Shown: piece by piece, positions 59,927 to 62,674 of the stretch | Layout: every line of letters starts with the position of its first letter | How positions within the stretch are numbered: the stretch's first letter is position 1 | Source: an uncultured Gammaproteobacteria bacterium | Lineage (GTDB): Bacteria; Pseudomonadota; Gammaproteobacteria; Ga0077536 | DNA length: 64,000 nucleotides | Direction of reading: 5' to 3' | Assembly (NCBI GenBank): GCA_963976285.1 | Contig: CAXBJY010000005.1 | Span: forward strand, 3,164-67,163 | The notes under the pieces: model-generated | Told to the model about the DNA's origin: nothing | The model's database searches: none | What the model saw: only the letters and a program-made list of their open reading frames with translations | Position numbers and translations under genes: made by a program

Positions 59927-60535
59927 ATGACGCTATTACTGATCCGCCACGGCGAGACCGACATGAACACGAATCGGGTCGTGCAGTTTCCCGACACACC
60001 GCTCGGCGAGCATGGCCTGCGGCAGGCCGAACGGCTCGGTGAAAGTCTGCGCAAGCGCTCGATAGCCCGCGTACTGACCAGCGATTATGCGCGCGCACGC
60101 GTGACCGCCGAGCATGTCGCGCGTCATACGGGCGCGGAACTCGTTGTCCTGCCCCGTTTGCGTGAGCGGAATTTCGGCGATATTCGCGGCACTTCCTACG
60201 CCGATCTCGGCGAACTCGATATTTTCGCCCCGCAATTTATCCCGCCCGGCGGCGAATCCTGGGCCGTATTCGACCGCCGGGTCGACGCCGCGTGGGCCGA
60301 GGTGCTCGAGCACGCGGCGGCGATCCCCGGGGAGATCGCGATCGTTACGCACGGCCTCGTATTGCGCTCGCTGTTTTCACGCACGCTCGATGTGAGCGCG
60401 CACGCGCTCGAAACCGACATCGTGGTCGCGAACACCGCAGTGACACTGGTCGATCGCGAGCCGCCGTGGCGCGTGCGCGAGCTTGCCAGTGTTGCCCATC
60501 TCGATGACGTCAAGCGCGATGTCGCGCCGGTCTAG
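59927..60535 (+). CDS. histidine phosphatase (phosphoglycerate mutase-like) family protein
   Basis: N-terminal LLLIRHGETDMN RHG catalytic motif and the downstream His in AIVTHG. Confidence 0.7.
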   Translation: MTLLLIRHGETDMNTNRVVQFPDTPLGEHGLRQAERLGESLRKRSIARVLTSDYARARVTAEHVARHTGAELVVLPRLRERNFGDIRGTSYADLGELDIFAPQFIPPGGESWAVFDRRVDAAWAEVLEHAAAIPGEIAIVTHGLVLRSLFSRTLDVSAHALETDIVVANTAVTLVDREPPWRVRELASVAHLDDVKRDVAPV

Positions 60536-60699
60536 CAGTCTGTCGGACTTAGGCAATCGTAGCGAGCATGGTGGGAGAGCGAGTGCAAGTTCGTCCGATT
60601 TTGAGGAGCATAGTGGTTCTATGTGACGAAAAATCGGACGGATTTGCGCCGCTCTCCCATCAGCGCAGTAGATTGTCCCTAAGTCCGACAGACTGCTAG
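60532..60699. repeat. 168-bp nested inverted-repeat element (MITE/REP-like or structured RNA)
   Basis: Perfect 22-bp terminal inverted repeats ctagcagtctgtcggacttagg / cctaagtccgacagactgctag. Inner complementary pairs gatgggagagcg/cgctctcccatc (1 mismatch), cgtccgatttt/aaaatcggacg, and a central catag..ctatg. Confidence 0.5.
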
Positions 60700-60710
60700 G
60701 ATTACCGCTC

Positions 60711-61649
60711 ATGATTGATACTGCATTTACGCGTCTTGTCGGTTGCCGCTACCCCGTGCAGTCCGTGCCGATCCCGGGTATCGCGACCGTCGAGTTCGTG
60801 GCCGCGATATGTAACGCCGGGGGACTCGGTATGCTGCCGGGATCGATGGCGCCGGCGGATGCCGTGCGCGGCATGTTGGCGAAACTCCGCGAACTGACGG
60901 ACGCACCGCACGGGGTCAATTTCCTCATCCCGTTTCTCGAGCCCGGCTATGCCGCCGTCAGCGCGGCCGCCGAGCACGCGCGCGTGATCGAATTCTTTTA
61001 CGGTGAACCGGATCCGGAACTCGTCGCGCTCGCACACGCCGGTGGGGCGTTGTGCAGCTGGCAGGTCGGATCCGTCGACGAGGCCCGTGCCGCGGTCGGG
61101 GCCGGGTGTGATTTCATTATTCAGCAGGGCGTCGAAGCCGGCGGACACGTTCGCGGTACGACGGATCTGTACGACGTGCTCGGTGCCACGCTCGATGCCG
61201 TGTCGGTACCCGTACTCGCCGCGGGCGGCATTGCCACGGGTGCCGACTACGCCGCGGCGATAGCCGCCGGCGCCGCCGGTGTGCGCGTCGGAACCCGCTT
61301 CGTGTGCTCGCGCGAATCGCGCGCGCACAAGGACTACAAGCAGGCGCTCGTCGCCGCCGGCGCCGACGATTCGACGTATACCGAGGCGTTTTCCGTCATG
61401 TGGCCGCACGCGCCACACCGGGTGCTGCAGAGCGCGATCGACGCGGCGAACAACTGCGAGGATGAAATCGTCGGTGAGTGGACGCTCGGCGGCGAGCGGC
61501 TTGCGATCCCGCGTAACGCCGTGATTGCACCGACCGCCGATACGACCGGCCGGATCGAGGCAATGGCGCTGTATGCCGGTCGTTCTGTCGGCCGGGTTAC
61601 GTCCGTCGACAGTATCGAGCAAATCATGGCCGACCTCGTCGGCGCCTGA
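60711..61649 (+). CDS. nitronate monooxygenase (NMO/2-nitropropane dioxygenase family, FMN-dependent)
   Basis: N-terminal RYPVQSVPIPGIATVEFVAAICNAGGLGML and the GGHV glycine-rich FMN site. Confidence 0.8.
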   Translation: MIDTAFTRLVGCRYPVQSVPIPGIATVEFVAAICNAGGLGMLPGSMAPADAVRGMLAKLRELTDAPHGVNFLIPFLEPGYAAVSAAAEHARVIEFFYGEPDPELVALAHAGGALCSWQVGSVDEARAAVGAGCDFIIQQGVEAGGHVRGTTDLYDVLGATLDAVSVPVLAAGGIATGADYAAAIAAGAAGVRVGTRFVCSRESRAHKDYKQALVAAGADDSTYTEAFSVMWPHAPHRVLQSAIDAANNCEDEIVGEWTLGGERLAIPRNAVIAPTADTTGRIEAMALYAGRSVGRVTSVDSIEQIMADLVGA

Positions 61650-61670: not shown

Positions 61671-62213
61671 TCAGCCCCAGTACCAGTCTTCGAACAACAG
61701 CGTGCGCACGCGTTTCGCGGCGCTGCGCCGGGTGGCGGGAAACCACGCGAGTTCGCGCCCGGCACCATCGCGTGCCTGTGCCGAACGTGTGCGGATCCCG
61801 CGCAGGTTCGCGTTGCGGGCGCGTACGCCAACGGGCTGGCAAACCTCGTGCGGTACCGGTTTGCCGTTCAAATCGAACGGATAGTTGTCATGCAGTCCGG
61901 CCTTCGCGACGCCGAGGCGAGAGTGCACATCGGCGACCCGTTGCGCGCGCGGCAGCGTGACCGCGACGAGCACCGGGCCGGAATCCGACCGCAGGTCTTC
62001 GGGTTCGTACGGCCACTGGTGGATAAACGCACGCAGGTTCAGGCGCGCGGTGACGTGATCCTCGTTCAGGTACAGGGTCGGGAAACTTCCGGGCGGGTTC
62101 CAGCGTCCGCCACGCGCTTGCGCGAACGAGGGATCGAGCGGGTCCCGCCAGGCGGGATCGGCGATCCGCCACCACGTGTGGCCGTCCGGCAGGTTTTCCG
62201 ACTGCAGGCCCAC
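61671..62213 (-). CDS. RES-domain toxin
   Basis: GGRWNPPGSFPTLYLNED matches the N-terminal RES-domain region, with a downstream Ser. Confidence 0.7.
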   Translation of the reverse strand: MGLQSENLPDGHTWWRIADPAWRDPLDPSFAQARGGRWNPPGSFPTLYLNEDHVTARLNLRAFIHQWPYEPEDLRSDSGPVLVAVTLPRAQRVADVHSRLGVAKAGLHDNYPFDLNGKPVPHEVCQPVGVRARNANLRGIRTRSAQARDGAGRELAWFPATRRSAAKRVRTLLFEDWYWG

Positions 62214-62224
62214 CGCGTTATCGC

Positions 62225-62674
62225 TCAGGCCGGTACCGCCGCGAAATCGAACATCGCACGCACCGTGGCCAGCAACTCGCGGCTGTCACCGCTCGCGACG
62301 AAATCGAGCAGCGACACACCGCCACGCGCCGCGATGGGACGCCGGACAACCGCCGGGATGCGGTCGCGCTTGACGTAGTGCACGAGGATATCCGTGGCGG
62401 CCGCGAGATCGCCGAGCATCTCCTGGCGATCCGCCGGCGCGCCCCGGTCGAGCCATTTCGCGATGGCCTGACGACTGATGCCGAGCAGGCGCGAGGCTTC
62501 CGACTGACTCAGGCCCCACACCGAGAGCGTGCGCGCGAGCGACTGTCCCGAGCGCTGACGGTCAAAGTGCTCGGCGAACGTGTCGAGCCACGCTTTCTCC
62601 CCGGCATGCGCACGGAAGATGCGCTCGGCGGCTTCGCGCGGATCGGGGCGTGAGGTTTTCGTATCCGTAGTCAT
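62225..62674 (-). CDS. Xre-like (DUF2384/ParS-type) antitoxin
   Basis: About 150 aa. HTH (LSQSEASRLLGISRQAIAKWL) and a C-terminal antitoxin-like region. Ends 12 nt before the RES gene. Confidence 0.6.
   Translation of the reverse strand: MTTDTKTSRPDPREAAERIFRAHAGEKAWLDTFAEHFDRQRSGQSLARTLSVWGLSQSEASRLLGISRQAIAKWLDRGAPADRQEMLGDLAAATDILVHYVKRDRIPAVVRRPIAARGGVSLLDFVASGDSRELLATVRAMFDFAAVPA

Follow-up and report, generated by a model that had tools for sequence, protein, structure and literature searches.

A 160-bp palindromic element between a histidine-phosphatase gene and a nitronate monooxygenase gene probably belongs to a family of IS1182-dependent MITEs with a covarying, strand-specific fold

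The window analysed here, a 64-kb stretch of DNA from an uncultured gammaproteobacterium, carries between two plus-strand genes an element at positions 60532 to 60699. According to our analysis, this element is one copy of a 160-bp non-autonomous miniature inverted-repeat transposable element (MITE) together with its duplicated CTAG target, which relies on a transposase of the IS1182 family and whose fold serves its own propagation, a reading to which we assign a probability of roughly 85%. Upstream lies a histidine-phosphatase gene (His_Phos_1; 59927 to 60535; Pfam PF00300, E value 7e-40), the orthologues of which are called as 202 aa. Its TAG stop (60533 to 60535) sits within the left CTAG, and the left edge of the element is the C preceding that stop. 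Downstream of the insertion, a gene of the nitronate monooxygenase (NMO) family occupies 60711 to 61649 (Pfam PF03060, E value 1e-49), with its ATG 11 nt beyond the right edge of the element, which is the distance given in the initial annotation. A Shine-Dalgarno-like AGGA at 60698 to 60701, 9 nt upstream of this ATG, takes its first two bases from the right CTAG.

The element itself, 160 bp plus twice 4 bp, is non-coding and has a sole internal open reading frame (ORF) of 43 aa. From left to right it consists of a first CTAG (60532 to 60535), a terminal inverted repeat CAGTCTGTCGGACTTAGG on the plus strand (60536 to 60553), a structured core predicted to form a long imperfect hairpin (60554 to 60677), the reverse complement of the left repeat (60678 to 60695, minus strand), and a second CTAG (60696 to 60699). 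With the flanking CTAGs included, the 22-nt arms (60532 to 60553 and 60678 to 60699) are 100% complementary. Nested imperfect repeats (60569 to 60581 with 60650 to 60662, and 60585 to 60613 with 60619 to 60647) are arranged around a small central stem-loop, and the apical stem-loop of the core lies at 60608-60624. The 22-mer does not recur in the window and found a match in 0 of 100 shuffles. The G+C content is about 53% within the element versus about 66% in its surroundings. Upon folding, the full 168 nt form a single long hairpin, of −119.2 kcal/mol for the plus-strand RNA (z −17.9) and −96.5 kcal/mol for the minus-strand RNA (z −13.8), while DNA parameters give −62.2 (plus) versus −55.7 (minus). 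The perfect 22-bp terminal repeats, the nested stems with a central mini-hairpin and the one long imperfect stem-loop described in the initial annotation are thus all confirmed.

Scanning the terminal-repeat core CAGTCTGTCGGACTTAGG against one genome per GTDB species retrieved at least 118 stretches (L001 to L118), and the hosts among the matches listed are nearly all uncultured metagenome-assembled genomes (MAGs), assigned to the Gamma-, Beta- and Zetaproteobacteria, Balneolaceae, Gemmatimonadales, Victivallales, Verrucomicrobia, Phycisphaerae and others. At several of these loci the same ends bound full-length elements, in which the repeats lie 1.57 to 1.63 kb apart (1574 to 1626 bp) and enclose one ORF of 430 to 452 aa. 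This ORF scores 324.4 bits against the NCBIfam IS1182 model NF033551 (cut-off 270), contains the Pfam domains DUF772, DDE_Tnp_1 and DDE_Tnp_1_6, and also obtains weak scores against the NCBIfam IS5 models; its homologues on plasmids bear the annotation IS1182 family transposase. Single ORF, length, 22-bp repeats and CTAG on both sides all agree with the traits of the IS1182 family, whose members measure about 1.3 to 1.95 kb and have inverted repeats and short direct repeats. Two transposase types, 44% identical to each other, have the same 22-bp ends in common, with type A represented by the elements in L010, L015, L037 and L101 and type B by those in L032, L065, L105 and L118. A cultured example is provided by the Methylobacter plasmid NZ_CP091426.1, where CTAG-GAGTCTGTCGGAC...GTCCGACAGACTC-CTAG bounds an annotated IS1182-family transposase.

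The window element is therefore deemed a MITE on the features by which such elements are recognized: it is short and non-coding, its terminal inverted repeats recur in an autonomous insertion sequence (IS), and it comes with a target duplication and an empty site. A transposase partner encoded elsewhere in the genome would, to judge from these shared ends, move it in trans. MITE and partner IS have only the 18- to 22-bp terminal inverted repeats in common. Derivation of the MITE interior from the ends of a full-length IS found no support among the full-length elements retrieved: we detected no similarity past the repeat except about 8 nt (GGATGAAT) in type B, and a covariance model of the MITE found no match in the interiors of the full-length IS elements. 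Against the window the same model returns one copy, with 171 bits on the plus strand and 91 bits on the minus strand.

Copies of the MITE are numerous. The commonest spacing of paired repeats is 159 to 161 bp (167 to 169 bp once the CTAG on either side is counted), which is also that of the window copy, and among the matches listed more than 100 copies of 167 to 169 bp occur in MAGs and metagenomes of several phyla. They include 65 further distinct complete copies, nearly all of 167 to 169 bp, obtained in a second scan in which a pattern specific to the 3' arm was searched in metagenome contigs (at least 120 stretches). Several copies per genome are present in the MAGs JBBDRV01, CATOSA01 and JACZXA01, and L033 and L073 contain two copies each; the closed genomes OZ244981.1, OZ244846.1 and CBDDBH01 hold many. 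BLASTN of the 168-mer against the PLSDB plasmids gave no match; the 30-nt repeat used as a query against the same database gave only weak matches of 20 to 24 nt, one of which led to the Methylobacter IS. A full-text search of a literature collection for the terminal repeat sequence found no paper. The MITE family itself appears to be undescribed, and it belongs to an already known kind, the MITEs dependent on IS1182-family elements.

CTAG adjoins 126 of the 189 distinct element ends (L001 to L118 plus the window), its commonest variants being CCAG (10), CTAA and CTGG (6). CCAG and CTGG are the products expected from very-short-patch repair of CTAG, which may be coincidence, as both are single transitions. 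The target duplication is either the 4-bp CTAG or a 2-bp TA within C-TA-G, and imperfect flanks are compatible with both: of the asymmetric cases, seven agree with C-TA-N and one disagrees, and the cases with CTTG at both ends fit the CTAG and TA models alike. A 4-bp direct repeat is on record for ISPse1, a 1653-bp member of the IS1182 family (PMC3281130).

At the locus itself, which was read from a metagenome assembly (ERZ3421808), the comparison with relatives is informative. L121, with an NMO protein 98% identical, has the element with three substitutions relative to the window copy. In L124 (NMO 87% identical) the site is empty, reading ccggtTTAGgataatttgccATG, with one (T/C)TAG (here TTAG) and the same 11-nt spacer as in the window. 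L123 (NMO 89%; 1846 to 2000) and L125 (85%; 1862 to 2000) have unrelated spacers of 155 and 139 nt between the two genes, and since neither spacer corresponds to the MITE or to the empty site of 11 nt, the junction has changed repeatedly. Alignment with the empty site thus identifies the element as an apparent insertion, in this lineage, at the CTAG that holds the TAG stop of the histidine-phosphatase gene. The MITE-like mobile repeat proposed in the initial annotation is accordingly upheld by the IS-shared repeats, the empty orthologous site and the many copies elsewhere, and the target-site duplications to which it had drawn attention are present as CTAG on both flanks.

A long stable hairpin between two co-oriented genes could equally suggest an immobile, locus-specific cis-regulatory RNA of the NMO gene, i.e. 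an attenuator, terminator or riboswitch. However, the same element stands in more than 100 unrelated contexts, the site is empty in L124, and L123 and L125 have the unrelated spacers described above. Even at permissive thresholds, Rfam 15 matched only plant and insect microRNA-precursor models at chance level (19 to 21 bits versus a gathering score of 70; E values 0.18 to 0.8), and a scan of 60300 to 60900 contained no promoter-like or terminator-like site and no terminator-like T-run. We regard this explanation as extremely improbable, and the structured regulatory RNA of the initial annotation, if meant as one specific to this gene pair, is not upheld, as the same element is found in unrelated contexts in either orientation.

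The insertion had also been thought to displace the NMO gene from any Shine-Dalgarno sequence. This is not what we found: the right CTAG and its flank rebuild AGGA (60698 to 60701) 9 nt before the ATG, and the empty site of L124 likewise reads TTAGGA-9 nt-ATG. As the duplication regenerated the TAG stop to the left of the element and this AGGA to its right, neither coding sequence is damaged. The AG of the AGGA motif is paired at the base of the hairpin in the predicted mRNA fold, and a polar effect on the NMO gene is possible on this prediction. Among the copies of the family, about 37% (38/103) coincide exactly with the TAG that closes an ORF of 100 codons or more, and convergent gene contexts (23) are more frequent than divergent ones (12); such an enrichment at gene ends is what is expected from CTAG targeting combined with selection against intragenic insertion.

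Outside the repeats, the copies vary markedly, with nearest-neighbour identities of 56 to 98%, yet their pairing is maintained. In an alignment of 38 copies of window length from the genome scan, oriented by their interiors, 92.1% of the cells form standard pairs, and in 39 of 56 pairs both partners have changed. Double-change cells number 333 versus 109 ± 9 in shuffles, and the covariation score is 0.46 versus 0.07 to 0.13 when the partners are slid by one to three columns. Columns 69/107, for example, contain CG in 18 copies, AU in 12, UA in 4, GC in 3 and GU in 1, with no broken pair, and columns 80/96 contain AU in 20 and CG in 18. A replicate of 59 distinct metagenome copies, which was fitted to the covariance-model structure and hence leans towards it, gave 95% paired cells, 46 of 63 compensatory pairs and a score of 0.45 versus 0.04 to 0.10. 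Since the stems covary with very different sequences, the 43-aa internal ORF cannot be conserved. Irregularities are conserved as well, namely a GA bulge after GUAGC, an A/AG bulge after GAGCG, GA opposite GA beside the apical stem, tandem G·U/U·G pairs (GU 21 versus GC 9, and UG in 27 of 38 copies) and a G·U near the apex (28 to 32 of 38). Unpaired positions are rich in purines, and GTAG is present in both arms on one and the same strand. As regards the structured RNA considered in the initial annotation, a covarying and strand-specific fold does exist across the family, but it belongs to a mobile element and not to the gene pair.

The fold is also a property of one strand. The same strand, corresponding to the plus strand of the window, folds better in 38 of 38 genome copies and in 63 of 65 metagenome copies (101/103 overall), by about −15 kcal/mol on average. 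An A·C mismatch on one strand is a G·U pair on the other, and the ratio of G·U to A·C in the consensus structure is 163:31 for the 38 copies and 324:45 for the metagenome set, with 4 G·U and 0 A·C in the window copy. The excess persists when each 85%-identity cluster is counted once and the three conserved wobble pairs are excluded (117:31, p 6e-13), and among changes private to one sequence relative to its nearest neighbour (92:22). The wobble pairs derive from both G-C (51) and A-U (34) pairs. We therefore ruled out mere inheritance or C-to-T decay alone as the source of the excess, which is spread over many columns and clusters and over both pair origins. When the reverse-complement alignment was folded separately, its consensus reached only −40 versus −65.5, with A·C above G·U.

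Such paired changes might also arise without selection, if the hairpin were a functionless by-product of palindrome correction at the DNA level through intrastrand template switching at replication. Two copies look as if they had undergone this process: in L077 (5387 to 5554) and L054 (3561 to 3728) the sequence of the outer 3' arm matches the reverse complement of the 5' arm exactly, e.g. CCGTTTCGCTTTCGAA opposite TTCGAAAGCGAAACGG, while the sister copies L034 and L112 keep the usual asymmetric GCAGCCGAATCAT. The rewriting of these arms looks like a template-switch conversion of a quasi-palindrome, as far as can be told from the sequences. However, correction should remove bulges and mismatches, whereas the bulges (GA and A) and the tandem pairs (G·U/U·G and G·A) persist across phyla, and it does not predict a one-strand excess of G·U over A·C of 4:1. 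Nor is a hairpin automatic for every MITE with these repeats, a possibility that we discarded on the evidence of sibling subfamilies of 130, 135 and 147 bp, which have the same repeats but non-palindromic interiors, fold no differently on the two strands and score equally on both strands with the covariance model. The fold of the 160-bp family is for this reason not a by-product of its MITE origin. On balance we judge correction as the whole explanation to be unlikely, if still deserving of serious consideration.

If selection maintains the fold, the beneficiary could be the host or the element. A host role in mRNA, comparable to that of the ERIC and Correia repeats, would have the hairpin attract RNase III, stabilise the transcript or prevent translation of NMO, and the locus offers some support for it: both flanking genes lie on the plus strand, which is the better-folding one, the AG of the AGGA ahead of the ATG takes part in the basal pairing of the hairpin, and the copy is retained with three substitutions in the population whose NMO is 98% identical. 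On the other hand, the close relative L124 lives without the element, and no preference of orientation relative to genes is seen in the family. Where a copy sits on a stop codon, the ORF concerned runs into the 5' end of the better-folding strand in 24 cases and into the opposite end in 15, and in tandem-gene contexts the better-folding strand is sense in 14 cases and antisense in 20. Along this strand, 43 of 101 copies have flanks of positive GC skew; the first set showed a weak trend (18/50 positive, p 0.065) that was gone in the second (25/51). None of these biases, with respect to the stop-hit gene, tandem contexts or GC skew, is significant in the two independent sets, in which ORF and skew assignments are crude and samples small. 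Because there is no orientation preference relative to genes, host transcripts do not select the fold, and a role in mRNA is not what conserves the family. A host function is thus unlikely, and the mRNA role described above appears to us rather improbable.

We consider it most likely that the fold serves the element's own propagation, since only such selection is blind to genomic orientation. According to the proposed mechanism, the transposase of this IS1182 subgroup would bind the repeats, cut out or copy the element and insert it at CTAG. The 124-bp interior would be kept as an irregular one-strand hairpin for the element's own propagation: folding may bring together the two ends of a short, stiff element of 160 bp, about one persistence length of duplex DNA, and the bulges and wobble pairs may mark the strand that is used, in a single-stranded DNA or RNA form, in the manner of the extrahelical bases of integron attC sites. 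We infer that a strand-specific single-stranded form, DNA or RNA, serves the element itself. One point against an RNA form is that the G·U excess reaches into the terminal repeats (20:6), which would be absent from a transcript started internally.

Strand specificity would be explained directly if the element were a REP/REPIN or IS200/IS605-type palindrome moved as single-stranded DNA by an HUH enzyme (RAYT or TnpA). HUH-moved elements are recognized as folded single strands, and a strand-specific fold, conserved extrahelical bases and GTAG in both arms on the same strand would all suit this explanation. However, HUH elements are not known to have terminal inverted repeats or target duplications, while the element studied here has perfect 22-bp inverted repeats identical to the ends of DDE-type IS1182-family elements and duplicated CTAG flanks, and shows no orientation bias with respect to GC skew (43/101). 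On these sequence features an HUH-moved element is very improbable, and the REP-like character suggested by the initial annotation is not supported: in its ends and its target duplication the element follows the DDE (IS1182-family) type and not the REP/RAYT type.

A more daring version of the proposed mechanism would have the DDE transposase of the IS1182 subgroup act on, or be guided to, a folded single strand (the DNA itself or an RNA copy) of the 160-bp element, with bulged purines and wobbles marking the active strand. We put this forward as a speculation that is more probably wrong than right by a wide measure. Were it true, a DDE family believed to act on duplex ends would include a step that depends on single strands, and there would be a physical answer to the problem of how the two ends meet in elements below the persistence length of DNA.

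Several points weigh against the interpretation as a self-propagating, IS1182-dependent MITE. The window holds just one copy within the 64 kb of the source organism that were examined. A tblastn search of the 64-kb window did not find an IS1182 transposase, and mobilisation in trans would therefore have to be read from the shared ends. The interior is unlike the ends of the full-length elements retrieved, bar the 8 or so nt in type B. DNA-level palindrome correction contributes to the apparent covariation, as L054 and L077 indicate. As regards the single-stranded form, there is no promoter-like site in or near the element and no orientation bias, so that an RNA would want a source of strand-specific transcription; for a DNA, the strand difference is small with DNA parameters (−62.2 versus −55.7) and far larger with RNA parameters.

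Among known systems, Methanosarcina acetivorans has ISMac2-related MITEs (160 and 169 bp) whose inverted repeats measure 25 to 26 bp and whose direct repeat measures 4 bp (PMC3852290). These MITEs resemble the window MITE in their IS1182-family partner, size of 160 to 169 bp, long terminal repeats and 4-bp duplication. They differ, in a comparison made by description only, in being archaeal, in their sequences and in that no covarying strand-specific interior is described for them. MITEPsy1 of Pseudomonas syringae is 100 nt long, has 18-nt inverted repeats (GGAAGGTCTGAAAAAGCC), a 4-bp duplication of CTAG or YTAA and the partner ISPsy2 of the IS5 family, and its transposition has been shown experimentally (PMC3189936). 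Like the window MITE, it is short and non-coding, with a CTAG duplication and a transposase from a related family (IS5 versus IS1182); unlike it, MITEPsy1 has 100 nt, other repeats and an IS5-family partner, and is not a full-length palindrome. IS1272, an IS1182-family element of Staphylococcus, is reported to target inverted repeats and to insert by replacing them without target duplication (PMC5678879). It shares with our partner IS the family and a link to stem-loop DNA, but its behaviour differs, as the subgroup described here duplicates CTAG.

The ERIC/IRU and Correia repeats are near-complete palindromes of 100 to 160 bp from enterobacteria and Neisseria, located at intergenic transcribed sites and forming long hairpins in mRNA. 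The family described here resembles them in being a palindrome over the whole element, but they have other terminal repeats and a TA target and are not known to have an IS1182 partner. With its repeat CAGTCTGTCGGACTTAGG and its CTAG flanks, the family is, in a comparison by description, not placed among them. REP/REPIN sequences are likewise set apart by the presence of IS-type repeats and a CTAG duplication. Integron attC sites are imperfect palindromes of variable sequence with a conserved single-strand fold, extrahelical bases and one active strand. The likeness to them is one of functional analogy only, in that the fold is kept while the sequence varies and one strand is preferred, and it stops at the tyrosine recombinase and the cassette arrays of attC, as opposed to the DDE ends, the target duplication and the scattered single insertions of the present family.

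For the locus in the window the consequences are small, as we deal with an insertion polymorphism that leaves both neighbouring genes intact. The family is of wider relevance: it is abundant in uncultured sediment and soil bacteria of several phyla, it breaks short-read assemblies, and it can be mistaken for a regulatory RNA. The preference for CTAG puts more than one-third of the copies on TAG stops, and the stop is rebuilt each time, which amounts to a harmless route of insertion. Moreover, covariation, conserved bulges, a 4:1 excess of G·U over A·C on one strand and no orientation bias make this an unusually clean case among DDE-type MITEs, and the combination raises the question of which single-stranded form of the element is under selection.

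Some further observations concern the copies and their surroundings. Subfamilies of about 130 to 147 bp with unrelated interiors were detected in L039 (8 to 137), L058, L088, L008 and L067 (Phycisphaerae), L090 (3665 to 3811), L084 (120 to 254) and L012 (1058 to 1187), and in the Phycisphaerales MAG DAOVQG01 such copies stand at many contig ends, which suggests a high copy number. Copies or fragments head to head with one common CTAG, as well as repeat-to-repeat remnants of 41 to 57 bp, occur in L018 (437 to 601), L026 (283 to 322), L039 (1 to 29), L064 (4035 to 4083) and L029 (7555 to 7609); element ends seem, from these arrangements, to recreate preferred targets for later insertions or deletions. 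Two short-read (Logan) contigs of the window locus, L120 (1 to 45) and L122 (1 to 63), begin inside the element (model positions 124 and 106), so that the assemblies break within the hairpin; either the samples contain the element in several copies or the assembler fails at the palindrome.

About 10% of the element ends adjoin one and the same sequence, CTAGCCCGGAT(A/T)T..C(A)C (L015, L049, L058, L082, L091, L101 and others), which in L015 and L101 continues for more than 35 nt (CTAGCCCGGATTTCTCACCARGTGATGCGATGATCGC). We take this recurrent flank to be the probable end of another repeat family that is bounded by CTAG and uses the same target sites. Its identification as a tRNA 3' end, suggested by CTAGCCCGGAT...CACCA, was ruled out, since there is no upstream T-arm partner and the flank extends as a longer shared repeat. 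Finally, directly downstream of the NMO gene, on the minus strand, a gene for a RES-domain toxin (PF08808; 61671 to 62213) is followed by one for a 149-aa partner (62225 to 62674) with faint matches only, of the helix-turn-helix/YdaS type. From its domain content the pair at 61671 to 62674 looks like a toxin-antitoxin system of the RES-Xre type, and the RES gene pair next to NMO is conserved in the relatives L119, L121, L124 and L125.

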